This document shows, one piece after another, positions 12,207 through 24,815 of a stretch of DNA of 45,453 bases (positions within the stretch are counted from its first letter, which is position 1; every line of letters begins with the position of its first letter). The notes beneath the pieces are model-generated. The model saw only the letters and a list, made by a program, of their open reading frames with translations, did no database searches and was not told the DNA's origin. The DNA is from Escherichia phage vB_EcoS_SD276: sequence record OR911938.1; one strand, written 5' to 3'. The position numbers were made by a program, and so were the translations under genes.

Positions 12207-14849
12207 ATGGCAGATCAGGCAGCGGGCATCACGCTAAAGGCGGACGTCGCGCAAATTAAAACGGCTAATACTGTGCTGGACACATTTGCGCAGAAATCCG
12301 AGAACACAGAACAGAAAGTAAAGAAATTAAACGACACCCTCGGCAAGTCGAAAAAGGTTACTGGCGACGCCGCGGGCGGAATGGAAAAGTTAGCGACTGA
12401 ATCGCAGCGTGCCGCCGATGGCATGACGAAACAGGAGCGACTCGCCAGCCGATTAGGCATGTCGACCAAAAACCTGGGATTCGCATCGCGGAACGCCGCA
12501 TTCCAGTTACAGGATATTGCGGTGACGCTTGAGATGGGTATGCCGGTGCACCGCGTTATGCTTCAGCAGTTACCGCAGCTTACTGGGGCGTTTGGCGGAC
12601 TGGGTAACACGCTGCGATATGTTGCGGGCTTTCTCGGCCCAGTGGGGATCGGCCTTTCGGCATTAACGGCGACGTTAGGCGTAGGGGTGGCAATTACGAC
12701 CCGCGCAGAGAACCAAGTGGCGGCGCTTAATAAGACGCTGGCGCTGTCCGGTAATATTTCAGGCCTCACAGCTAACCAGATCCTTGTGCTGTCCGAGAAC
12801 GCCGAGCGCATGGGCGGGTCATTTCGCAAGACGCGTGACACAATCCAGGCGCTGGCGGCGGCGGGGGTGAAAGCGGGTGGTGACTTCGGCGCATTGGCTA
12901 AGGTAGTTAATGACTTTGCGAAGGTGTCCAGCCAGCCGATCGAGGATGTGGTAGCGGCGGTAGCGAAGCTGTCAACCGACCCCGTTGGCGGACTGCGTGC
13001 GCTGGCGGATAAGTATCACGTCGTAAACGAAGCGCAGATCCAGCAGGTACAGTCGCTCGTTGATGCGGGTCGTGAGACAGACGCAGTTGCGTTGGCTAAC
13101 AAAACAGCCGCTGCGTCGTTCACCAGCATGACCAATGAGATCAAGGCGAACATGGGTACGCTTGAGCGATCTATGAACGTCGTCACATCGGCAGCCAAAT
13201 CAATGTGGGACGCCATCCTGGATGTGGGCCGCGCGCAGTCCTCCAATGAGTCCGAGATGAAAGCGCGCGAATCACTACAGCGCATGACCACGGCTTACTA
13301 TGCCGAGATGAAAGCGGTAAACGCTGCCGGTGGGGTAATGACTGAAGCGCAGAAAGCACGTATTAACATGCTTTACAGCGAACTGGTCGCCCAGGAAAAG
13401 GTAGTGGCGTCGCTCACCCTGCGTAACCGTGCCGAGCGAGACAACGCCCGCGCCGCAGACGAATCCGCAAAGGCGAACGAGGAGGCCAACCGCACCGCCC
13501 GCGACCGTGCCGCGTTTGAAAAGGAGTACGCAACTAACGCTAAGAAGCGCGCCGACGAGATCGCCCGCCTCAATTTGCTGAATAAGCGCGGCGTTATTGA
13601 TGAGAAAGAGCTTGCCGAGGCGGTGAAGCAGGTAAACGAGCGTTACAAAGACCCCGCACCGAAGAAGGCCGCCGCGGTACGAGTCGATGCCGGTATGAAA
13701 ATGCTGGAAGTCGCACGGAGCGAACTGGCCCAGCTTCGAGAATCCAGCAAGCAGATCGAAGCCAACGCATCTACGCAGACCCGCACGCAACGCGCTCAAG
13801 CGGCCTTAAACAAGCTGATCGCCGACAATGAGCAGTTAATCGCTGCGAGCAAAGAAAGAGCGCTAACGGCAGCAGAAAAGCAGCAGATGGTCGAATTCGG
13901 ACGCGTGAAGGAAGTGCGCGAGCAGATCGTCGAAGAAGCCAAATTGCTGGACGCGAAAGAGAAGCAGGTTAAGGCGCACGCGCAGATCGAGGCCTTCGTT
14001 AAGAACCAGAACGCCGAACTAAAAGCCACAGCCGCTGGCTATGCGCTTTCCACTCGCGAAGCGGCAAACCTGCGCGAAGAATTGCAGCTAATCGATCGTC
14101 TGAAGCGGGTTGGCGCTAACGATACCGATATTGGCAAGGCGGTGTCTAAGCTGCGGGAAGTGCAGGAGGCGCAGACCGGCGCTAACGCCTCGCTATGGGA
14201 TGGATTCAGTCGCGGGCTTAAGGATAGCGTGGATGAAATGGGTAACGGATATACGCAGATGGCGTCGCTCACGAAATTCACATTCAGCGCTATGCAAGAC
14301 ACGATGAACGAGTTTTTCGAGACTGGCAAGCTGAACGCAAAGGATATGGTTAAATCCATCCTAAGCGAGTTAATCAAGCTGGCTACCTCGCAGGCGTTCA
14401 AGTCGATCGTTAGCGCTTTCGGTGGTGACGGCGGCAAAAACGGATTGTTCGGCGCTATCTTCTCCGGCCTCACTAAGAATGCGGACGGCGGAGCGTACGC
14501 AGGAGGCAATCTCGCGGCCTATTCCGGTCAGGTAGTAAGCCAGCCCACCTTTTTCAGTTATGGCGTCCAGGCGTTCGCTAAGGGCGCAGGATTGATGGGT
14601 GAGGCTGGCCCCGAGGCCATCATGCCTCTGAAGCGCGGGCCGGACGGGAAACTGGGCGTTGCCGCTTCTGGCGCAGGCGGGGGTATGATCGTGACGACTA
14701 ACGTTTACACTGGGACCGGTAAAACAGACACCAGTGTGAGCGGCCCAGACCCACGCACCGCGCAGGCGTTCGGCAAGCAAATCACCGAGGCGGTGAAGGC
14801 CGAGATCGTGAAAGCGACGAAACCGGGTGGTGTACTTTACAAACGATGA
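12207..14849 (+). CDS. tail tape measure protein
   Basis: 880 aa, long Ala/Gln/Lys/Glu-rich helical protein with hydrophobic glycine-rich segments, downstream of G/GT. Confidence 0.85.
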   Translation: MADQAAGITLKADVAQIKTANTVLDTFAQKSENTEQKVKKLNDTLGKSKKVTGDAAGGMEKLATESQRAADGMTKQERLASRLGMSTKNLGFASRNAAFQLQDIAVTLEMGMPVHRVMLQQLPQLTGAFGGLGNTLRYVAGFLGPVGIGLSALTATLGVGVAITTRAENQVAALNKTLALSGNISGLTANQILVLSENAERMGGSFRKTRDTIQALAAAGVKAGGDFGALAKVVNDFAKVSSQPIEDVVAAVAKLSTDPVGGLRALADKYHVVNEAQIQQVQSLVDAGRETDAVALANKTAAASFTSMTNEIKANMGTLERSMNVVTSAAKSMWDAILDVGRAQSSNESEMKARESLQRMTTAYYAEMKAVNAAGGVMTEAQKARINMLYSELVAQEKVVASLTLRNRAERDNARAADESAKANEEANRTARDRAAFEKEYATNAKKRADEIARLNLLNKRGVIDEKELAEAVKQVNERYKDPAPKKAAAVRVDAGMKMLEVARSELAQLRESSKQIEANASTQTRTQRAQAALNKLIADNEQLIAASKERALTAAEKQQMVEFGRVKEVREQIVEEAKLLDAKEKQVKAHAQIEAFVKNQNAELKATAAGYALSTREAANLREELQLIDRLKRVGANDTDIGKAVSKLREVQEAQTGANASLWDGFSRGLKDSVDEMGNGYTQMASLTKFTFSAMQDTMNEFFETGKLNAKDMVKSILSELIKLATSQAFKSIVSAFGGDGGKNGLFGAIFSGLTKNADGGAYAGGNLAAYSGQVVSQPTFFSYGVQAFAKGAGLMGEAGPEAIMPLKRGPDGKLGVAASGAGGGMIVTTNVYTGTGKTDTSVSGPDPRTAQAFGKQITEAVKAEIVKATKPGGVLYKR

Positions 14850-14856
14850 TAAAATG

Positions 14857-14885
14857 GCCCTCACATTCATCGTGGGGGCTTTTTT
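14857..14885 (+). terminator. terminator-like hairpin after tape measure gene, abutting next start codon
   Basis: GCCCTCAC-loop-GTGGGGGC followed by TTTTTT then ATG. Confidence 0.5.
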
Positions 14886-15485
14886 ATGTCACAAGGTACG
14901 ATCACATTAACTAAGGGTAGTAAGACCGTTACAGGCGCGGGGACGGCGTTCCTTAGCGAGATCGGGAAGGTACTCGTATTCGCCCGCATCGACGGCAACG
15001 ACTACACCGGCAAAATTGCGGCGTTCAACTCGAACACGGTCATTACACTGAAAGATAACTGGGCCGGTCCAACGAAATCCGGGGCGGTATATGAGCTAAT
15101 CGAAGCGCACGACCCTCGATCAAACGAATGGCCCTATTACTGGCACATGCAATTGCAAGGCGGTGGAGACGTGCAGTTGGCTTTCCGGTCGGAGGAATTG
15201 CAATTCGGTAACGGTTACGGTCAGAACATCGCGGACGGCCCGAACGCCGAAACGAAACAATTTCCCGTGCAATTCGTCGGACTGACTACCGACAAGTGGT
15301 GTAATCCTAAACTGGTTTACAACTTCCTTCGCGGTCACTTCGTAAAACCGTTTGTCGTCACAGCACCGGATGGCGAAACAGGTTTATTCGTTGTCGAGCG
15401 TTCGAGCTTGTCGTACACGGACAACGGGCACTACACGGCAACGGTATCAGCCACCCTTAAAACAGCTATTGGATTCGTGAGATGA
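14886..15485 (+). CDS. minor tail protein (lambda M-like) with N-terminal fibre-like domain
   Basis: C-terminal half shows the FGxGYxQ pattern of M-type proteins; N-terminal ~50 aa resembles N-terminus of the lateral fibre ORF. Confidence 0.55.
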   Translation: MSQGTITLTKGSKTVTGAGTAFLSEIGKVLVFARIDGNDYTGKIAAFNSNTVITLKDNWAGPTKSGAVYELIEAHDPRSNEWPYYWHMQLQGGGDVQLAFRSEELQFGNGYGQNIADGPNAETKQFPVQFVGLTTDKWCNPKLVYNFLRGHFVKPFVVTAPDGETGLFVVERSSLSYTDNGHYTATVSATLKTAIGFVR

Positions 15486-16270
15486 ATAAACTATATCGTG
15501 AGGCGACGCGCTTTGACCCATCGGGTCGCGTTCGCCTGATTCACATTGACGCGCAGGACGTGGAACCAGGCGACGGTGCGATCGGCGCGGGCCATCACTA
15601 TTTCCACTATTGCTTTATTCCGCACACTGCCGAGGATATTGCTGCCGCTGGGGGTGACGAGGATAAGCTGAAGCCAAAATCCATCTTCTTCGACGGGCAG
15701 GAGTTCGAATTCTGGCCCTTCGAGCTGTCCGGCCTTAACTTCTCCACATCGACGGCAGCAGAACCGCAACTAACAATCGTCGATATTGGCGGCATAATAA
15801 CCCGGCTGTCGCTGAACCACGACCAGCTACTGGGCGCGAAGGTTGAGATCATTGATACGTTCGCGAAGTTCCTGGACAACGGGACAGATCCAGACCCGAC
15901 GCAGAAACGAGTTCAGGAGTATTACATCGACTCGCAGGTCGGGCGCAATCCGGGCAAGCAAATCACCTTCGCACTATCCTCACCTGCGGATATGGAAGGG
16001 CAGGTCGTCCCCCGTCGCCAAATCATGAATATGTGCGAATGGGCGCTCAACGGGAAGTACGCCAGCGGGGACGGGTGTACGTGGAACCTTGCGAAGCCTG
16101 GGATCAAGTATTACGACGAGCGTGGTAATGAAGTCATTGCGATGAATATGGACCGATGCGGCGGCTGTTTGTCCGACTGCTATCTTCGTTTTGGGCAAGG
16201 GCTTGCGGATCCTAAAGCTGCGGTGTTGGACTTCGGTGGTTTTCCTGGATCCAAATTGATTAAGGGGTAG
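15482..16270 (+). CDS. minor tail protein L-like
   Basis: Synteny M-L-K-I-J; Cys cluster DRCGGCLSDC near C-terminus as in L-type Fe-S tail tip proteins. Confidence 0.65.
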   Translation: MNKLYREATRFDPSGRVRLIHIDAQDVEPGDGAIGAGHHYFHYCFIPHTAEDIAAAGGDEDKLKPKSIFFDGQEFEFWPFELSGLNFSTSTAAEPQLTIVDIGGIITRLSLNHDQLLGAKVEIIDTFAKFLDNGTDPDPTQKRVQEYYIDSQVGRNPGKQITFALSSPADMEGQVVPRRQIMNMCEWALNGKYASGDGCTWNLAKPGIKYYDERGNEVIAMNMDRCGGCLSDCYLRFGQGLADPKAAVLDFGGFPGSKLIKG

Positions 16271-16272
16271 CC

Positions 16273-17013
16273 ATGTTAACGAAAAAGGTTAAAAGCGATA
16301 TCGCCGCACACGTTGCGGCGTGTCTGCCGGAAGAAGCCTGCGGGTTGGTCGTCATGGTTGGTCGTAAGCAAGTATTCGTCCCATGTCTGAACGTATTCGA
16401 AGATCCGACCGGCGTGCGCTCGCGTAAAGACGCGTTTACTATTAGTGATATGGCCTGGATGGATGCCGAGGATATGGGCGACGTCGTGCGCGTAGTCCAC
16501 TCGCATCCGGGCCAGCGAGAGCTTACCCCCTCACTGGGCGACGTTAACGGATGCAACGGCAGCGGCGTAGTCTGGACCATCACTAACGAATATGGCGACT
16601 TTATCGAGATCGACCCTGAAGACCCTCCGCTGGTGGGGCGTCGATTTGTTCTCGGAATTACGGATTGTTACGGCCTAGTCATGGACTGGCACAAAAAGCA
16701 GGGTGTAAACCTGCCAGACTTCCGCGTGCCGTATAACTGGTGGGAGACAGGCGAAAATCTGTATATGGATAATTGGTACGGCGCGGGCTTCAGGGAGTGT
16801 GAGGAAAATACGCCGGGGGCAATGGTCATCATGCAGATTAGCGCGCCAGTGCCTAACCACGCTGGGATATTCCTTCCGGGCAACCAACTACTACACCATA
16901 TCTACGGCAGTCTGTCGAGCGTAGTCCCCTTCCGGGCAGGATTTTTCCGCGACAATGTGGTTAAATGGGTCCGTCATAAAGACCTACCGGGGAATATCAC
17001 AGAATGGCAATGA
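16273..17013 (+). CDS. tail tip assembly protein K-like (MPN/JAB + NlpC/P60-type)
   Basis: Metalloprotease-like motif VVHSHPG...S.GD and downstream Cys/His region; synteny. Confidence 0.65.
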   Translation: MLTKKVKSDIAAHVAACLPEEACGLVVMVGRKQVFVPCLNVFEDPTGVRSRKDAFTISDMAWMDAEDMGDVVRVVHSHPGQRELTPSLGDVNGCNGSGVVWTITNEYGDFIEIDPEDPPLVGRRFVLGITDCYGLVMDWHKKQGVNLPDFRVPYNWWETGENLYMDNWYGAGFRECEENTPGAMVIMQISAPVPNHAGIFLPGNQLLHHIYGSLSSVVPFRAGFFRDNVVKWVRHKDLPGNITEWQ

Positions 17014-17621
17014 CAACGTTTAAATTGTACGGCGTTTTAGGGCGTCGATTCGGTAAAGTGCATAAGCTGGACTGCTTCACACCGGGCGAAGGAATCACCG
17101 GCTTGTGTGTGAAGTTGCCAGGGTTACAAGACTTTTTAATGTCGGCCCACCTGGACAACATGATGTTCAAGGTGCGCAAAGGCGACCACATAATGACCGG
17201 TTATGATGAGCTTGGCGAGTTCCACGGCAACCGCGTCGTCACCATCGCGCCGGTTATGACTGGCGCAAAAAGAGGATTGGGCCAATTGCTGGCGGGTGTC
17301 GCGATCGTAGTGGCGTCGTTCTATACGGGCGGACTTGCTACTGCCGCTTTCGGGGCTTCGGCGGCAACCGCTGCCGCTATCGGTACGGCTACGTTTTCGT
17401 TCGGCGTGTCGATGGCGCTGGGTGGCGTTATGCAATTGCTGTCGCCTCAACCGAAAGGATTGCAGACACGGCAGGACGTGGATAACAAGGCTTCGTATGC
17501 GTTCGGGGGGCCGGTAAACACGACCGCGCAAGGGACCGCACTTGGTGTATTATGGGGCGAGCGTGAGATCGGCGGCGCTATTATTTCAGCCGGAATCGTA
17601 ACCGAGGATTTGAACGAATGA
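17004..17621 (+). CDS. tail assembly protein I-like
   Basis: 205 aa, hydrophobic Gly/Ala-rich C-terminal half; between K-like and J-like genes. Confidence 0.6.
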   Translation: MAMTTFKLYGVLGRRFGKVHKLDCFTPGEGITGLCVKLPGLQDFLMSAHLDNMMFKVRKGDHIMTGYDELGEFHGNRVVTIAPVMTGAKRGLGQLLAGVAIVVASFYTGGLATAAFGASAATAAAIGTATFSFGVSMALGGVMQLLSPQPKGLQTRQDVDNKASYAFGGPVNTTAQGTALGVLWGEREIGGAIISAGIVTEDLNE

Positions 17622-20600
17622 CGATTATTTACGACGTCACGGGCCATAAAGGCGGCGGCGGCAAACAGCACACCCCACAGGAGACGCCAGATAGCCTGCA
17701 TTCGCTGGCTAAAATCCGCATCTTGCTTGCGCTGGGAGAAGGTGAGTTCGAAGGTATTCCAGACCCTAACGAATTACGGCGGCGCGTATATCTGGACGGA
17801 ACACCGATCCAGAACGCAGACCTGTCAGAAAACTTCCCCGGAGCGCGTGTGGAGTTCCGCCCAGGCACACAGCACCAGGATGTGATCCACGGATTTTCAG
17901 CGGTGGAAAGTGAGCAATCTGTCGGCGTAAAACTGGAAAACGGCACGCCGTGGGTGCGCCAGATTAACGATACCAGTCTGGACGCCGTTCGCATTCGCAT
18001 CGGCATTCCGGCCCTGTACACTAACGAAGATAATGGCGACCTGGTGGGCGGGCGCATCGACTATAAGATCGTTGTGTATACGGATAACGCCGACCCGCGT
18101 GAGTTCAGATTCGCCGCCGTTGGTAAAACAATGTCGCTATATGAGCGCGACCACCGCATCGAATTACCGCCGAACGTGAATACCGGCTGGCGAGTGGAGG
18201 TGCACCGCATAACGGCAGACTCCACATCTGCGAAAGTGGTTAATGATATCCGTGTGCAATCCATCACGGAGATTATCGACGCCCGCCTGCGTTACCCGCT
18301 AACCGCGCTGTTGTTTGTGGAGTTCGACGCTAAAGCGTTCCAGAACATCCCGCGCGTATCCATTAAGTGCAAAGGTCGCAAGGTGTTGATCCCGAACAAC
18401 TACGACCCGATTAATCATACCTATTCCGGTGACTGGGACGGCACGTTTAAACGCGCATGGACGGATAACCCTGCGTGGCACTGGTATGATATTTGTATTA
18501 CTGAGCGCTTCGGCCTCGGTCGGCGTATCAAACCGCAAATGCTAAACCGATACGCGCTCTACCAGATTGCGCAGCGCTGCGATCAGTTGGTCAGCGACGG
18601 CAACGGTGGTCGAGAAATCCGCTTTAAGAATGATATGTACATTCAGTCACAGACGGATGCCTGGACCGTGCTTAAGGATTTAGCCGCCATCTTCGCCGGA
18701 ATGACCTGGTGGGGCAACCAGATGTTGAATATCGTCAGTGACCAACCGGTCGCAGCAGTGTCGCACACTATCACCAACGCATCTGTTATTGATGGGCGAT
18801 TCGACTACGCATCTGGCAGCCAGAAAACTCGCTATTCCACATTCGCGGTAGCATACGGCAATCCGAAAAACCACTACGATGACGCCATCGCAACGGGCCA
18901 GCGCGTCGAACTGGTGCGCCGCCATAAGATTAACCGTCTTGATATTACGGCGATCGGCTGTACGCGCGAGTCAGAAGCGCAACGCCGGGGGCACTGGGCG
19001 CTAATCTCAAACCAGCTTGACCAGCAAGTTAGTTTTAAGGTTGGCATGGAGGGGTTATTCTTTATCCCAGGTAGCGTAGTCGCGATCGCAGATACAAACA
19101 TTTCTGGCGGATTCGAGACTCGCGGCGGTCGGCTGTTGTCGGACCCTGGAACGCGTACCGTGCTGAACACGGACAGCGAAATCACGTTCCGCCCTGGCGA
19201 TAAGTTCCTGGTGCGCACCGATAGCGGTAATGTGGAGACTCGCGAAATCGCCAGCGTCAACGGCAACAAGGTCACTCTAAAAACCGCACTGGATGCCGAC
19301 CCGATTCCAGACCAACCGTTTTGCGTTGATGGCGACGATATCCAGTTGCAGAAATTCCGCATCACCGATCTGGAGTATGACGACTCTACGAGCACTTTCT
19401 CGGTGCGCGGGATTGAGTACAACGATAGCAAGTATGATGCCGTTGATAATGGCGCGCGCCTTGACCCAGGCATCTTTACGCAAGTACCAGACGGGGTAAT
19501 GAAGGGGCCGGAATCCGTGACCATCACCCCGTCGCAGATTTCATCGCAAGGACAGCTAATCACCAACGTGGATATTGTTTTCCCGCCGGTGAAGGACGCC
19601 GTGGTGTATGAAATCCAGTGGAGGCGTACTAGCCTGCAGAATATGGAGATCCAGTGGGGTAACGACTGGGTGAATATCCCTCGCACGGCGTCGAATGGGG
19701 CGCACATCCCTAACGTGTTCTCCGGTAACTATCAGGCACGCGTCCGCGCAATTGGTATGGGCGAAATCTCGTCCCCGTGGGTGTCTTCCGAGATCACGCC
19801 GGTGGAAGGTCGCCTCGGTGGGCTTAACGCACCAATCATCACCAACGCGATTTCGGGTCTGCACCAAATTTTGTGGAAGTGGAACCACAACAACGCCGCG
19901 ACGGATATCTCTTACACCGAGCTTGAAGTGCGCAAGACGGGTGCGGAGGAATGGAAGTTCCTAACCAACGTCCCATACCCGGGGGCGGAGTATGCGCAAA
20001 CGTCACTGGAGTTCGGGATCTATCAGCAGTTGCGCGCCCGTGTAGCGGATAAAATTGGCAACCTGTCGGACTGGTCGGCCCCGTTTGAAGGGCAGGTGAG
20101 CGACAAAGTTGACGAGTACATGAAGGGGCTTGATAACGAGTTCTTGACTTCCGAGGATGGTAAACACTTCCAGGAAGCTATTAACACGATCCCGCAAGGT
20201 ATCTATGAGTCTATGCTTACGGACGCCCAGCAGCTATTCAATGCCCGCGCCGAGTATAAAGGGATTTACGCGGAAATCACGGTGGCGTATAACGTGGCGG
20301 CGGACGCGCATAAAGCAGTAGCGCAACTGGAAACGTTGATCGGCACGCGCCTGGATGACGCCGAAGCATCAATCCACACGTTGCAGACTGCGCAAAGCAC
20401 ACATGAACAAGCGTTCGCCCAGTACCAGCAAACTGTTGCCGCTAAGTTTTCGGAACAGGAAGCAGCCATCCAGCAGGTACAAACGGCAACGGCGGACGTG
20501 GCTGGCGCGCTGGCGGAGTATAAGACCCAGGTCGCGGCGCAGTTCGGTCAGCAGTCCGCCGCGATCGAGCAGAAGATGACGTCTTCGTTTAACCATGCGG

Positions 20601-21064
20601 GTGGCAGCGCCACGTACAGTCTTAAGGCTGGCGTGACGTATAACGGGACTTACTATGACGCCGGTATGCAGCTTTCAGTTGTGACGTCTGGCAACGCAGT
20701 TAAATCGCGTATTGCGTTCAAAGCAGACCAGTTCTATATCATGCACCCATCTAATGGGTCGCTTTCGTCCGCGTTTATCGTTGACGGCGGGCAGGTGTAC
20801 ATCGACACGGCACGCATCAAGGATGCGTCAATCAACTTTGCACAGATCACGGACACGCTTCAATCAAATAACTTCGCTTCCGGGTCACGCGGCTGGCGTA
20901 TCCAGAAAGGCGGCGCTGCGGAGTTTAACGAGGTAACGGTCCGCGGCAACCTGTACGCCACATCCGGTAACTTCGGATTCTCTGGTGGGACCGTGACGAT
21001 TGACAAGACAGGAGTAAACGTGCCGTTACCTGGCGGGGGAAGGGTGAAAGTCGGGACGTGGTAA
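17618..21064 (+). CDS. central tail fibre / host specificity protein J-like
   Basis: 1148 aa, largest tail tip ORF after I-like gene; followed by terminator hairpin. Confidence 0.8.
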   Translation: MTIIYDVTGHKGGGGKQHTPQETPDSLHSLAKIRILLALGEGEFEGIPDPNELRRRVYLDGTPIQNADLSENFPGARVEFRPGTQHQDVIHGFSAVESEQSVGVKLENGTPWVRQINDTSLDAVRIRIGIPALYTNEDNGDLVGGRIDYKIVVYTDNADPREFRFAAVGKTMSLYERDHRIELPPNVNTGWRVEVHRITADSTSAKVVNDIRVQSITEIIDARLRYPLTALLFVEFDAKAFQNIPRVSIKCKGRKVLIPNNYDPINHTYSGDWDGTFKRAWTDNPAWHWYDICITERFGLGRRIKPQMLNRYALYQIAQRCDQLVSDGNGGREIRFKNDMYIQSQTDAWTVLKDLAAIFAGMTWWGNQMLNIVSDQPVAAVSHTITNASVIDGRFDYASGSQKTRYSTFAVAYGNPKNHYDDAIATGQRVELVRRHKINRLDITAIGCTRESEAQRRGHWALISNQLDQQVSFKVGMEGLFFIPGSVVAIADTNISGGFETRGGRLLSDPGTRTVLNTDSEITFRPGDKFLVRTDSGNVETREIASVNGNKVTLKTALDADPIPDQPFCVDGDDIQLQKFRITDLEYDDSTSTFSVRGIEYNDSKYDAVDNGARLDPGIFTQVPDGVMKGPESVTITPSQISSQGQLITNVDIVFPPVKDAVVYEIQWRRTSLQNMEIQWGNDWVNIPRTASNGAHIPNVFSGNYQARVRAIGMGEISSPWVSSEITPVEGRLGGLNAPIITNAISGLHQILWKWNHNNAATDISYTELEVRKTGAEEWKFLTNVPYPGAEYAQTSLEFGIYQQLRARVADKIGNLSDWSAPFEGQVSDKVDEYMKGLDNEFLTSEDGKHFQEAINTIPQGIYESMLTDAQQLFNARAEYKGIYAEITVAYNVAADAHKAVAQLETLIGTRLDDAEASIHTLQTAQSTHEQAFAQYQQTVAAKFSEQEAAIQQVQTATADVAGALAEYKTQVAAQFGQQSAAIEQKMTSSFNHAGGSATYSLKAGVTYNGTYYDAGMQLSVVTSGNAVKSRIAFKADQFYIMHPSNGSLSSAFIVDGGQVYIDTARIKDASINFAQITDTLQSNNFASGSRGWRIQKGGAAEFNEVTVRGNLYATSGNFGFSGGTVTIDKTGVNVPLPGGGRVKVGTW

Positions 21065-21069
21065 ATGCG

Positions 21070-21093
21070 ATGGGGCCATCTGGCCCCATTTTC
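21070..21093. terminator. terminator hairpin between convergent J-like and antisense genes
   Basis: ATGGGGCC-ATCT-GGCCCCAT followed by TTTTC. Confidence 0.55.
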
Positions 21094-22057
21094 AATACAT
21101 ATTCGGGATGACGAGTAGCGGTGTTGGTACTGCAATATTTTTACCTGGCATCTGGAATTGCTGCCGCGAGTAGTTGCCGATGACGCGGTTTTTAGCGACG
21201 CGCACATTATTACCCGCCATGCGTATGCCGTTCATGCGGACGTGGTTATAGCCACCGTTGTTCTGAATCAGTGCTCCGGTGTATGAAAGCTGGATCAGGC
21301 GGTTTCCAATATTCTGGTCGCCCGTTCCGATGTTAATAGTGCGGTCATATACGAACGGCTTGTTCACCGTCGAGAACGTGACCTGATTCTGGTTATTCGT
21401 CATGGTGATCCCTGCCCCTGGCGTGGGTGGTGTGTTGTTGAATATCACCAAATCCATGTCCACCGAAGCCGCCACATCGTCGATGCCACCGTAGGACGCG
21501 TTGCGGACGATAATACTGCCGCCATCGAAGCCTACTGATACGTTGCCATCATCCCATCGGGCGAACGGAACACCGCCAACCGGCAAGGCCATACTACCGT
21601 TGACGCGCACGCGCTGTGCGTATCGGCAGGTCATTAGCTTAGACACGTTGGATATGGCGGTGAAGTCCGTCGAGTTGGCCACCAGTAAACCTGCGTTGCG
21701 CGACCCAACCGGCAGCACTTCCATTATGACGCCAGCCCATTGTGGTAAACCGGAGTACGCGCCATACGCATCCTCCCCGCGCAGGGTGATACCACTATTA
21801 CCGTTGCGAGTAACCGACGTAACGTAAAACGGGTCGGGAATTACCAGGGTCTGGTCAAACACCTCAATCACCTCTACCGGGCGAGTTAGCGCTACGATTA
21901 CCCGCGACCCATCCGTAAGCGGGGTGTTAATGGTTAGCGTCTTGTTGGACTGTGCCCGCTGGTTAAAGCTGGTGCAGAATGACGGCGCGCGGAGTCCAGC
22001 GGTTATCTCCATTACCGGCCTGCCATCGTTATAGTCGATAAGTATTCCAGCGCCCAT
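21092..22057 (-). CDS. hypothetical beta-rich protein, candidate receptor-binding protein (start could be GTG 22066)
   Basis: Antisense ORF downstream of J-like gene, translationally coupled to an upstream lipoprotein gene (TAATAATG overlap); Asn/Gly/Thr/Val-rich. Confidence 0.45.
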   Translation of the reverse strand: MGAGILIDYNDGRPVMEITAGLRAPSFCTSFNQRAQSNKTLTINTPLTDGSRVIVALTRPVEVIEVFDQTLVIPDPFYVTSVTRNGNSGITLRGEDAYGAYSGLPQWAGVIMEVLPVGSRNAGLLVANSTDFTAISNVSKLMTCRYAQRVRVNGSMALPVGGVPFARWDDGNVSVGFDGGSIIVRNASYGGIDDVAASVDMDLVIFNNTPPTPGAGITMTNNQNQVTFSTVNKPFVYDRTINIGTGDQNIGNRLIQLSYTGALIQNNGGYNHVRMNGIRMAGNNVRVAKNRVIGNYSRQQFQMPGKNIAVPTPLLVIPNMY

Positions 22058-22059
22058 TA

Positions 22060-22281
22060 TTACCACTCCCGTGATTTAACTGATACTGTGCCTGAGAAGT
22101 TGCCGTCGCTATCGGAGGACAGCCCAGTGAATCGCATGTCTACATCTCCTGCCGGTACTTTTTGCCCGTCAACGTAGCGCAACATGCAGCTACCGTAAGC
22201 AACCGTAACGCAATCTCCGTTGTTGCGTTCTACGGCGCAACCGGACAAAAGGACCGCACAAATCATAATTAAAGTTTTCAT
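22060..22281 (-). CDS. small lipoprotein, candidate superinfection-exclusion (Cor/Llp-like) protein
   Basis: 73 aa; signal peptide MKTLIMICAVLLSGC with lipobox; own promoter-like element upstream; located next to tail fibre genes. Confidence 0.55.
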   Translation of the reverse strand: MKTLIMICAVLLSGCAVERNNGDCVTVAYGSCMLRYVDGQKVPAGDVDMRFTGLSSDSDGNFSGTVSVKSREW

Positions 22282-22312
22282 GGTATCATCTCCTATATTT
22301 GGTTGAGTTTTA

Positions 22313-22340
22313 GTATTACACCGCTCAACCAGGATTGCAA
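22313..22340 (-). promoter_or_regulatory. promoter-like element upstream of lipoprotein gene (TTGCAA-N16-TAATAC)
   Basis: Hexamers on minus strand with TTGGTTGCAA motif. Confidence 0.35.
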
Positions 22341-22360
22341 CCAATTAAGAGGATTTAGCT

Positions 22361-24787
22361 ATGGCAGCGGGTACGCTATCCGTAACGAACAACAGCAAGG
22401 CGGTAGTAGGGGTTGGCACAACGTTTACCGCGTTTAAAGCAGGCGACTTTTTAACGCTGGTGGTAGGACAAGTCCCCTACACCGTAGCGATCGCGTCCAT
22501 TGAAAGCGCAACCGCGCTCACGCTGGTGTTACCGTTCGACGGCCCAACGGCAACCGGCCTTGCGTGGGACGGCGTTAAACGCGATACCATGTCACTGGCA
22601 ACGATGGGCGTTACCGTACAGGCACAGAAAGCGTTGCGATTGATGATCGCAGATGAAAACAACTGGCGCGCTATCTTCGGCGAAGAAGAAGAAATCTCGG
22701 TCACGCTACCGAACGGTCAAGTGGTGCAGGGTATGTCGTGGGGCTACCTGTCAAAACTGCTTAAAGACGTAGATCCTGTTGAATTGCAGGCTATCGCGGA
22801 CCGGACCATCACGGCTAAAAACCAGGCGCAAGGATTCCGTAACGAGGCGGAAGGCTTCAAGAACACCGCGAATACCGCGAAAGATGCCGCAGTAGCTGCG
22901 AAGACCGCGGCTGAAACGGCGCAGGGTAAAGCCGAGACAGCTAAAACGGCAGCAGAGTCCGCGAAGACTGCCGCCGAAACAGCTAAATCGCAGGCCGTAA
23001 CCGCTAAAGACCAGGCCAAAGGATTTCGCGACGAGGCTGAAGGCTTCGCAAACAGCGCGGACGCGTCAAAGAAAGTGCCGTATGCTGGCGTGGATATTGG
23101 AACGCCTGCTGGCATTAGGGATATGCTCAAGACGCTACGTGATACGGTCAAAGGTGGCTTTTGGCGGGTAACGAACTCGACGCAGTTCCCGGCTGGCGAA
23201 CTGACCCCCGGTAGCTATGGGCCTGGTGTGTGTGGTGGGGCGGGCGATACTTTCTTTGCAATCAACGTTGACTATCAAACCTCTCGCGTCAAAGTTTACG
23301 CTGGAAACAATGCCGCGATTAACGGCTCTTCGGGGAATGTGAGCGCCGTCGAACTAGCAAGGCTGGGTGCTAACGGGGACGTGGCGTTAGCGGACGGCGG
23401 GACCGGTGCATCGAACGACCAGGACGCGAGAAAAAACCTTCAGGCAATGCACGAGCGACAGGCATCGTTGGGTACTGAAGATCTTAACGAATTGAAAGGG
23501 GATAAGGCTGGATTTTACTTTCAGTCCATGTCGGCGAACGCCACCCCTGAGCGTAACTATCCAGTCGCCACGGCTGGTTGCTTGCTGGTGCAGCGTACTG
23601 GTGCTAACGTCGCGACAAGCTGCGTGCAGACTTTCACATCATACTTAGACGGGCGTCGGTGGATGCGCTGGATTAGCAACGGGGCAACTGGCACCTGGTC
23701 GCAGTGGTACGAACTGTATAACGCGGGGTCGTCGCCGACTTTTTCTGGGGTGGTCGCTGGCTCTTCGGTGGAGGCTAGAGGGAACGAAAAGCGCGCAGTT
23801 CTTCGCACCTGGCCTAATGATGTATCTGTTTCCAACTCGGCATCTAATAAATTCTTGCAATTAAGGGACAATGGTGAGCTTGCATATGACAACAAGCTGA
23901 TCGCGTATAATGGCCTTGTAGCAAGCGGCTCATTTTATATGCAAGTTCCGAGCATTAAGGTTAATACCGCTAATGGTGGCTTCCGTATCGACGGAACAAC
24001 GGCAACAAACGACCAACCACTGCACGTAACAGGCTACAACTCCGCAGGTACGCGTCTTTGGTTTTTAGGGAAGGACACTGGGGCGAACGCGCTATTCCTG
24101 AACGATGTTACATCGTCTAAGGTTGATCTGATCACAGACGGCGTTGTGCTTGGTACAAAGAATTTTGCGGGCAAGGCATACGTCCAGGCCGCAAGTTTGG
24201 AGATCGACCGTCCGAGCGGAAAGTATTTCAAAATGATGAACAACGGCGACTCGTCGCACCCCGCAACCTTCAAATTGTGGGGTAACGGGTCAGATCGCCC
24301 GGCGGTTATTGAGTTTGGGTTTGACGATGGTCCGGGGTGGCTTTTTTACGCCCAGTATAATAGCAACGGCACGCGTCAGATGAACGTTAACGGAACGGTA
24401 AACTGTACGACGGTAAACCAGTCTTCTGACCGCGAGTTGAAGGATAACATCAAGCCGATCGAGAACGCCCGCGCGGGCCTTGCTAAGATGGGTGGTTATA
24501 CCTACACCCTGAAAAAAGACGGTATGCCGTACGCCGGGGTGATTGCACAGGAAGTAATGGACGTTGTGCCGGAAGCCGTGAGCACGTTTGAGGACTACGA
24601 ATACCTTGCGGGGCCAACGCAAGACGGCGAGGAACTGGTAGGGCGTCAGCGCTTCTTCCAGGTGGATTATGGTGCTATTGCTGCATACGCGGTGCAAGTG
24701 TGTAAAGAGCAGGAAGAGGAACTGGTGTCTTTGCGTAGCGAACTGGAGGAATTGAAAGCTGCCGTAGCGGCACTGACTAAAGCATAA
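22361..24787 (+). CDS. lateral (L-shaped-type) tail fibre with C-terminal intramolecular chaperone (peptidase S74-like) domain
   Basis: 808 aa; internal Ala/Lys/Thr repeats (AKTAAETAK...); C-terminal region with conserved S...K motif and terminal coiled coil EEELVSLRSELEELKAAVAAL typical of autoproteolytic chaperone domains. Confidence 0.7.
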   Translation: MAAGTLSVTNNSKAVVGVGTTFTAFKAGDFLTLVVGQVPYTVAIASIESATALTLVLPFDGPTATGLAWDGVKRDTMSLATMGVTVQAQKALRLMIADENNWRAIFGEEEEISVTLPNGQVVQGMSWGYLSKLLKDVDPVELQAIADRTITAKNQAQGFRNEAEGFKNTANTAKDAAVAAKTAAETAQGKAETAKTAAESAKTAAETAKSQAVTAKDQAKGFRDEAEGFANSADASKKVPYAGVDIGTPAGIRDMLKTLRDTVKGGFWRVTNSTQFPAGELTPGSYGPGVCGGAGDTFFAINVDYQTSRVKVYAGNNAAINGSSGNVSAVELARLGANGDVALADGGTGASNDQDARKNLQAMHERQASLGTEDLNELKGDKAGFYFQSMSANATPERNYPVATAGCLLVQRTGANVATSCVQTFTSYLDGRRWMRWISNGATGTWSQWYELYNAGSSPTFSGVVAGSSVEARGNEKRAVLRTWPNDVSVSNSASNKFLQLRDNGELAYDNKLIAYNGLVASGSFYMQVPSIKVNTANGGFRIDGTTATNDQPLHVTGYNSAGTRLWFLGKDTGANALFLNDVTSSKVDLITDGVVLGTKNFAGKAYVQAASLEIDRPSGKYFKMMNNGDSSHPATFKLWGNGSDRPAVIEFGFDDGPGWLFYAQYNSNGTRQMNVNGTVNCTTVNQSSDRELKDNIKPIENARAGLAKMGGYTYTLKKDGMPYAGVIAQEVMDVVPEAVSTFEDYEYLAGPTQDGEELVGRQRFFQVDYGAIAAYAVQVCKEQEEELVSLRSELEELKAAVAALTKA

Positions 24788-24793
24788 CGAAAA

Positions 24794-24815
24794 GGGGCCG
24801 TATGGCCCCTTTTTT
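24794..24815. terminator. bidirectional intrinsic terminator between lateral fibre and leftward operon
   Basis: GGGGCC-GTAT-GGCCCC flanked by A-run and T-run. Confidence 0.7.

Follow-up and report, generated by a model that had tools for sequence, protein, structure and literature searches.

Why would a protein of the phage tail tip carry a domain of the kind that fastens tail fibres? The question is raised by Escherichia phage vB_EcoS_SD276 (sequence record OR911938.1), whose 45,453-nucleotide sequence, analysed over its full length and referred to here as the window, encodes a protein resembling lambda gpM (the M-like protein) and, farther downstream, a lateral tail fibre (Table 1). According to the original prediction, the first ~50 residues of the two proteins form a shared anchoring module, so that either both proteins dock at the same site or the M-like protein is a second, short fibre-like appendage. 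By its domain content, gene order and nearest solved relative, we find that the M-like protein is a distal tail protein (DTP), that is, a subunit of the tail-tip ring and not a fibre, and that it carries in front of its core an additional domain (the M N-domain) related to the fibre's N-terminal domain (the fibre N-domain). This domain is probably an accessory decoration of the ring, with the fibre anchored elsewhere.

A domain shared by the M-like protein and the lateral fibre

Both of the N termini to which the original prediction referred are present in the window, MSQGTITLTKGSKTVTGAGTAF at the start of the M-like reading frame and MAAGTLSVTNNSKAVVGVGTTF at the start of the fibre reading frame, and the similarity between them is statistically significant in BLASTP, Smith-Waterman and hhalign comparisons. 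BLASTP aligned residues 1 to 73 of the M-like protein with residues 1 to 73 of the fibre (34% identity, 54% positives; E = 7e-7). The Smith-Waterman score of the M segment against the fibre N terminus was 96, compared with 26.1 ± 4.8 for 5,000 shuffles of the M segment (z = 14.6); none of the shuffles reached 96, the highest scoring 57. Against the whole fibre, z was 12.4, and among all open reading frames of the window, the fibre was the only nonself match above background (96 versus ≤47). When the M N termini of Dhillonvirus, the genus of the window phage (see below), were compared with the Dhillonvirus fibre N termini by hhalign, they aligned over 73 columns (97.5% probability; E = 6.6e-12). 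The M N terminus also matched the N termini of tail-fibre families in the PHROG database (phrog_17834, 1.6e-16; phrog_28473, 2.2e-14; phrog_1980, 5e-13), and two of the families matched in this way are matched by the resident fibre, too. On these statistics, the M N-domain and the fibre N-domain are homologous, as had been suspected by eye. Their extent had been underestimated: the shared domain covers ~73 residues (14886-15104) and not ~50 residues ending at position 15060.

Two trivial explanations, to which we give next to no credence, are that the similarity is a matter of chance or composition and that it reflects a recent, functionless duplication or gene conversion of the 5′ end of the fibre gene. 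Nothing but the short length of the match speaks for them. Chance is ruled out by the BLASTP result, the shuffles, the hhalign alignment and a profile match to a pyocin fibre (described below). Recent duplication or gene conversion is ruled out at the DNA level, where the 5′ ends of the two genes show no similarity (the codon alignment has 44% nucleotide identity, and blastn gave no co-linear match). Duplication is also ruled out by the affinities of the M N-domain, which is closer to the fibres of other phages than to its own: its scores were 46 to 52 bits against the fibre N termini of ES18-like enterobacterial prophages and 20 to 28 bits against those of Dhillonviruses, which appeared at ranks ~110 to 150. 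The M N-domain was therefore captured from another branch of the family and is no recent copy of the resident fibre. Absence of function is unlikely as well, given that the fusion is kept in ~157 phage records with a ratio of nonsynonymous to synonymous substitution rates (dN/dS) of 0.10 at a dS of ~0.5.

We identify the M-like protein as a DTP because of its gpM-type core, the gene order (tape measure protein [TMP]-M-L-K-I-J) and its near identity to a DTP of deposited structure. Residues 86 to 187 match PF05939 (Phage_min_tail, the lambda gpM family) over profile positions 5 to 102 of 108 (E = 2.5e-11), with a score of 44.3 bits against a curated cut-off of 39, and the protein matches phrog_9922 (E = 4.4e-141) and phrog_14 (E = 6.4e-16). 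Over its full length, including the N-domain, it is ~96% identical to Protein Data Bank (PDB) chain 23gd_B, “Distal tail protein gp20” (199 aa), whose sequence shows 100% identity to the product of the M gene in phage Oekolampad (Bas18). The same entry holds “Hub protein gp21” and “J-like tail tip protein gp24,” homologues of L and J, respectively, and the ratio of its chains (2 gp20 to 1 gp21 to 1 gp24) fits a 6:3:3 tip with three-fold symmetry. The M core also matches the DTP of phage T1 (9l9p_H; E = 4.3e-12). By analogy with the T1, lambda and F-pyocin homologues, which form the hexameric DTP ring at which six-fold symmetry gives way to three-fold symmetry, the M-like protein would assemble into a hexameric ring located between tube and L/J hub. 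A search of the literature returned no paper on PDB entry 23gd, and the paper on the complex of the Oekolampad receptor-binding protein (RBP) with LptDE does not mention gp20 (PMC12685063). With its PF05939 core and ~96% identity to 23gd_B, the M-like protein is therefore a component of the ring, and the idea of a second, short fibre-like appendage is not supported.

The N-domain is an addition to this ring component. Short M homologues have 113 to 130 aa, and residues 1 to 73 of the M-like protein lie beyond the core that they represent. In alignments with short-M relatives of 122 to 125 aa, the similarity begins at W82/P83, and over the core, the M-like protein is 54 to 64% identical to short M proteins P0005-P0010. 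No ATG, GTG or TTG codon was found among codons 74 to 82 from which an additional, short M product could be started internally.

To explore the family to which the domain belongs, we ran a full HMMER scan using a profile made from both domains of the window. The scan returned 3,744 cluster representatives with a threshold of E ≤ 1e-3 and 491 with one of 1e-10. Most of the 150 best-ranked representatives have the domain at residues 1 to 75 of a protein of 250 to 800 aa, and only 1 of the 150 is a gpM fusion. A minority of the 150 carry 3 to 13 tandem copies of the domain within proteins of 600 to 2,900 aa. A word-indexed homologue search yielded 0 matches with the 82-aa domain alone, 10 with the whole M-like protein and 6 with fibre residues 1 to 150. 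Among the sequences in PDB, only two proteins match the domain, namely, the DTP of Oekolampad and PyoF13, the side fibre of the F2 pyocin. M residues 2 to 80 align with residues 5 to 81 of the latter (25ve_A; E = 2.8e-5), and the profile of the two window domains matches the same chain with an E value of 3.5e-8. The N-terminal domain of PyoF13 has been described as an OB domain (PMC13455828), and by analogy with this published structure, the M N-domain would adopt an OB-type β-barrel fold. The shared module thus belongs to a family of fibre-anchoring domains, in line with the first reading of the sequence.

The tandem arrays are found in proteins P0011 (1,557 aa), P0012, P0013, P0021 and P0036, in which up to 13 copies of the ~70-residue domain are combined with PKD domains. 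P0011 (L023:8001-12674) is encoded in a phage tail module on an 89-kb contig, a few genes downstream of the tape-measure gene. Within the arrays, weak, subthreshold matches to Phage_attach (lambda gpFII) and to an EF-P KOW-like domain were observed.

The start of the M gene has been annotated in different ways. Public annotations use in-frame upstream starts, giving proteins of 218 aa (JLBYU60, P0001) or 212 aa (P0002), and these longer forms (region 14829-14885) overlap the end of the TMP gene and a terminator-like hairpin. The hairpin lies between the TMP stop codon and the M start codon (14856-14885; GGCCCTCACATTCATCGTGGGGGCT) and has a 9-bp stem with six G-C pairs and a 7-nucleotide loop, followed by a T run that abuts the ATG at 14886. 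The 300-nucleotide region around it contains two terminator-like sites, compared with 0.3 expected by chance, and the hairpin may attenuate transcription into the tail-tip genes. The deposited structure contains the 199-aa form, whose start, MSQGT, corresponds to the first ATG after the hairpin.

Fibre attachment with and without the domain on M

Both copies of the domain are present in 15 of 15 IMG/VR loci with a 199-aa M protein and in ~157 GenBank phage records. Six other lineages have the fibre module together with a short M protein. The nearest of them comprises three metagenomic Dhillonviruses (L001-L003), in which the TMP, K, I and J proteins are 97 to 98% identical to those of the window and the first ~100 residues of the fibre are near-identical (82% identity over residues 1 to 176). 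Their M protein has 123 aa and no N-domain, its core being only 66% identical to that of the window, and their L protein (415 aa) contains an insertion of ~150 aa. The more distant IMG/VR contig L019 (J 72% identical) encodes an M protein of 125 aa, an ordinary L protein of 264 aa and a fibre N-module that is 56% identical over residues 1 to 132. Klebsiella phage KLB16 combines an M protein of 130 aa with a 60% identical fibre N-module, and phage ES18 combines one of 115 aa with a 40% identical N-module in its virion fibre, gp33. A Citrobacter koseri prophage also has a 115-aa M protein, and its fibre comes from the family most similar to the M N-domain. Finally, the F pyocins have a DTP of 113 aa, a plain gpM homologue, and a side fibre with a homologous N-domain. 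Because these six lineages keep the fibre N-module in the absence of the M domain, an attachment site for the fibre exists independently of that domain, and fibre anchoring probably does not require it. By its distribution, the M fusion is a derived trait of the core Dhillonvirus lineage.

In L001 (10001-11609), and likewise in L002 and L003, the difference takes the form of a swapped M-L cassette relative to positions 14886-16270 of the window. The L insertion lies at residues ~55 to 215. It has no match in Pfam and shares 37 to 42% identity with a portion of the L proteins from Klebsiella (and two Enterobacter) phages.

In the fibre, the N-domain is followed by a segment that we call the stem. 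The fibre N-domain is 80 to 100% identical over ~157 phage records, and across Dhillonviruses, a conserved fibre N terminus is combined with a variable distal part, the total lengths being 538 to 893 aa. The distal part in the window has, near the fibre C terminus, an intramolecular chaperone domain (PF13884; 50.7 bits against a cut-off of 22; E = 2.2e-13), and residues 667 to 807 match a long tail fibre distal subunit (PDB 6f45; E = 8.3e-8). Genome similarity breaks off inside the fibre gene at about codons 115 to 170, depending on the record (positions 22750-24400 of the window), a pattern that is typical of modular receptor-binding exchange and that has been noted earlier for the Dhillonviruses of the BASEL collection. 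The stem (residues 74 to 130) is conserved with the fibres of ES18-like prophages. It is absent from the M-like protein, in which the N-domain leads into the gpM core at residue 82. A helical tendency of the stem was seen only in a low-confidence model.

Where the fibre docks is suggested by the F pyocins. The J protein matches 23gd_D (E = 0) as well as the central fibre of the F2 pyocin (25vf_A; E = 3.6e-226), the latter being its closest solved homologue outside Dhillonvirus, and J residues 892 to 1101 align with residues 977 to 1186 of the pyocin protein. When five J proteins were aligned, acidic clusters could be seen near residues 828 to 850. In three cryo-electron microscopy studies of F pyocins, the side-fibre N-domain (residues 2 to 76) and the stem bind the coiled coil of the central fibre. 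In the F2 pyocin, two of the three OB domains of each trimer form a pseudo-six-fold ring and one is left free, and grooves in the shaft of the central fibre accommodate the stem helices (PMC13455828). By analogy, the lateral fibre of the window most likely docks on the J shaft via its own N-domain and stem. The ~130 conserved N-terminal residues of the fibre, the stem above all, could then be used as a transplantable anchor that needs no domain on the DTP.

We estimated selection on these segments from 16 genomes (dS, ~0.5). The dN/dS value was 0.10 for the M N-domain, 0.03 for the M core, 0.067 for the fibre N-domain and 0.026 for the fibre stem. Variable positions amounted to 25 of 78 in the M N-domain and 16 of 118 in the M core. 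The M N-domain is under purifying selection and, by these values, appears to be functional and constrained, though more loosely than the ring core, which is what one would expect of a domain exposed at the periphery. The stem is the most constrained segment of the fibre N-module, which agrees with the pyocin structures, in which it is a major part of the interface. Pairwise distances of the M N-domain and the fibre N-domain were not correlated across 11 genomes, a sample of low power (Mantel r = 0.00; P = 0.45).

These observations bear on the proposal that the two proteins dock at the same site, which we do not uphold. Since the gpM core keeps the M-like protein in the virion, its N-domain does not require a docking site; the stem, too, is missing from the M-like protein, six lineages do without the M domain, and the homologous pyocin domain binds the central fibre. 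A related possibility, which we consider unlikely, is that the six N-domains of the DTP ring are themselves the attachment site, packing like with like against the fibre N-domains in a mixed collar around the junction of tube and tip, much as pyocin OB domains encircle the shaft or side-fibre (Stf) N-domains encircle gpM in Ur-lambda. Several points speak for such a platform: domains of this family self-associate in the pseudo-six-fold ring of the F2 pyocin, where one per trimer stays free; the side-fibre collar of Ur-lambda sits at the gpM periphery; extensions of the DTP act as fibre or spike adaptors in phage Sf11 and in monocin; the loss of the M N-domain in L001-L003 coincides with an insertion in L that possibly replaces it; and the M N-domain is under purifying selection. 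Against it, the fibre N-module is present without either the M N-domain or an L insertion in L019, KLB16, ES18, the Citrobacter prophage and the F pyocins, the strongest constraint within the fibre module falls on the stem, which M does not have, the low-powered 11-genome comparison gave no sign of covariation between the two N-domains, and the M N-domain is not derived from the resident fibre. More doubtful still is the specific form in which the DTP domains would make up a second, built-in docking ring, the copied anchor domain serving as the receptor for the fibre instead of, or besides, the J shaft.

Placement and role of the domain on the DTP ring

The position of the M N-domain in the tail tip can be deduced from Ur-lambda, in which residues K2 and W6 of gpM contact an external side-fibre collar around the gpV/gpM junction (PMC12617516). 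These contacts place the gpM N terminus on the outside of the ring, and a domain fused there would therefore be displayed six times. By this analogy, the M N-domain would have a six-fold, peripheral placement in the window phage.

We thus propose, with fair though not strong confidence, that the captured fibre-type domain is a six-copy peripheral decoration of the DTP with an accessory role and that the fibre is attached independently of it, on the J shaft. In such an arrangement, the DTP of the core Dhillonviruses would have gained a β-barrel domain of ~73 residues at its N terminus, taking over only the globular part of the fibre module and no stem. The six copies would form a covalently tethered collar around the junction of tube and tip, and the lateral fibre would be anchored to the J shaft by its own N-domain and stem, as in F pyocins. 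The collar might reinforce or enlarge the junction, or it might make weak multivalent contacts with the cell surface. The M N-domain is replaced in nature by nothing (as in L019) or by the insertion in L (as in L001), which supports the view that it is an optional, modular decoration.

An alternative role, and an improbable one, is that of an adhesin: the M N-domain would bind glycan or lipopolysaccharide on the host surface, making six weak contacts near the tip that have no bearing on fibre assembly, comparable to the insertions with which “evolved” Dit proteins bind carbohydrate. The M N-domain evolves ~3 times faster at the protein level than the M core (0.10 versus 0.03), it has been exchanged in nature for a different peripheral insertion in L, and the tandem arrays of up to 13 copies with PKD domains in giant phage tail proteins are typical of surface-exposed adhesive modules. 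On the other hand, a Pfam scan found no ligand-binding motif or family match in the M N-domain, the one family member that has been characterised by experiment binds a protein (a coiled coil) and not a glycan, and a dN/dS of 0.10 denotes constraint and not diversifying selection.

Several points weigh against the peripheral decoration that we propose. The accessory role of the M N-domain is a matter of deduction, and the docking of the fibre on J is drawn from analogy. The docking site of the pyocin central fibre (residues ~950 to 961, with the kink at 953 to 956) lies upstream of the part that can be aligned with J, which is the distal part of the shaft. DTP extensions of other systems, as in Sf11 and monocin, do dock fibres or spikes. 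In L001-L003, the insertion in L could replace a docking function of the M N-domain, and because of this gain, these three loci taken alone are compatible with a docking role. Structure prediction was of little help. The AlphaFold2 model of the M-like protein, based on an alignment of 11 sequences, had a predicted local distance difference test score (pLDDT) of 47, with residues 1 to 122 below 50, and was too poor to use. That of fibre residues 1 to 150, based on seven sequences, had a pLDDT of 42 and showed five strands within residues 7 to 56 at low confidence. The poor quality of both models results from the shallow alignments.

The tail locus and its relation to known systems

The window is assigned to Dhillonvirus by the similarity of its tail region (14000-24800; 10.8 kb), which is 95% identical to that of Dhillonvirus LF50P3 and 90 to 95% identical to those of >120 further Dhillonvirus coliphages, among them PC2, Gluttony, Oekolampad, JL1, EK99P-1 and Sodalis phage SO-1. 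The features of the region are listed in Table 1.

Two genes on the minus strand separate J from the fibre gene. The first (21092-22066) encodes a DUF6453 protein of 324 aa, labelled “membrane protein / moron” in PHROGs, that is homologous (E = 1.8e-205) to a chain in PDB entries 9rpt, 9rpw and 9rqi. Of these, 9rpw and 9rqi are listed as Oekolampad RBP-LptDE complexes (PMC12685063). Given this homology, LptD is probably the terminal receptor of the window phage. The adjoining gene (22060-22344) encodes a lipoprotein of 94 aa (PF24052, with a weak match to Cor), which is likely a partner in superinfection exclusion.

Table 1. Features of the tail region of the window (positions 1 to 45,453 of OR911938.1)
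Feature	Position	Strand	Details
TMP	12207-14849		880 aa
M-like gene (DTP)	14886-15485	+	199 aa; between the TMP gene and the L homologue
M N-domain, fibre-type small β-barrel domain (predicted fold)	14886-15104	+	Codons 1-73
Junction between M N-domain and gpM core	15105-15128	+	Codons 74-81, AHDPRSNE
gpM-type tube-fold core of DTP	15129-15485	+	Codons 82-199; PF05939
L-like hub protein, neighbour of the DTP in the tip	15482-16270	+	262 aa; PF05100; matches 23gd_C “Hub protein gp21”
K homologue	16273-17013
I homologue	17004-17621
J-like central fibre/tail tip protein	17618-21064	+	1148 aa; FNIII-A_GpJ, Phage-tail_3, Phage_Tail_Tip (Pfam)
J helical shaft, candidate fibre docking site (by analogy only)	20105-20587	+	Residues ~830-990
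Two genes between J and the fibre	21092-22344	-
Lateral tail fibre gene	22361-24787	+	808 aa; matches PHROG tail-fibre families
Fibre N-domain, homologous to the M N-domain	22361-22579	+	Codons 1-73
Fibre stem, absent from the M-like protein	22580-22750	+	Codons 74-130
Intramolecular chaperone domain (Peptidase_S74) near the fibre C terminus	24425-24580	+	PF13884; residues 689-740

How side fibres are fastened matters for the swapping of fibres in engineered phages and tailocins, and several solutions have been described only recently: lambda and T5 use collars, Sf11 and monocin use DTP adaptors, and in F pyocins the fibre is attached to the shaft. In the window, which belongs to a large and much-used coliphage group, an anchor domain has been copied onto the DTP itself; natural variants replace it with nothing or with an insertion in L. 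The DTP-borne domain thus offers a ready genetic test of what a DTP decoration does. We regard the finding as a modest extension of the known theme of decorated DTPs and not as a new mechanism. For a near-identical protein, a structure has already been deposited.

The closest known system is Oekolampad itself, whose gp20 (23gd_B) has the same length of 199 aa and was solved together with the L-like gp21 and the J-like gp24; no fibre chain of Oekolampad was found in PDB. The F pyocins are another close system. Their side fibre (PyoF13/PA0643/PA0646; PDB 25ve and 25vj) is built like that of the window, with an N-domain followed by a stem, and its partner is a J homologue. The difference lies in the DTP: in F pyocins, the domain occurs on the fibre only and the DTP is plain (113 aa), whereas in the window, a second, stemless copy is fused to the DTP.

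The PyoF13 OB domain structurally resembles the decorating domain of the T5 DTP (PMC13455828). Both T5 pb9 and the M-like protein have a small extra domain added to a tube-fold DTP core. That of pb9, an OB-fold domain, is not N-terminal. In an hhalign comparison with a profile of 155 N-domain sequences, the link to pb9 was not significant at the sequence level (0.6% probability; E = 0.097; 26 columns). The fibres of T5 are anchored through a separate collar of p132.

Lambda gpM is a bare 109-aa core. It belongs to the same family as the M core (PF05939), and in Ur-lambda, the N-domains of the side fibre, Stf, touch the N terminus of gpM. The Stf N-domain consists of a six-stranded β-sheet and a helix; it assembles into a dodecamer, with no fusion to gpM (PMC12617516). 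The N terminus of the window fibre had no sequence match to lambda chains among solved structures. Sf11 gp17, the monocin DTP and the “evolved” Dit proteins of lactococcal phages likewise combine a DTP ring with a module at the periphery of the tip. The extensions of these DTPs are C-terminal or internal and have unrelated folds (for example, a helical adaptor or a galectin-like domain), whereas that of the window is N-terminal and is a homologue of a fibre anchor.

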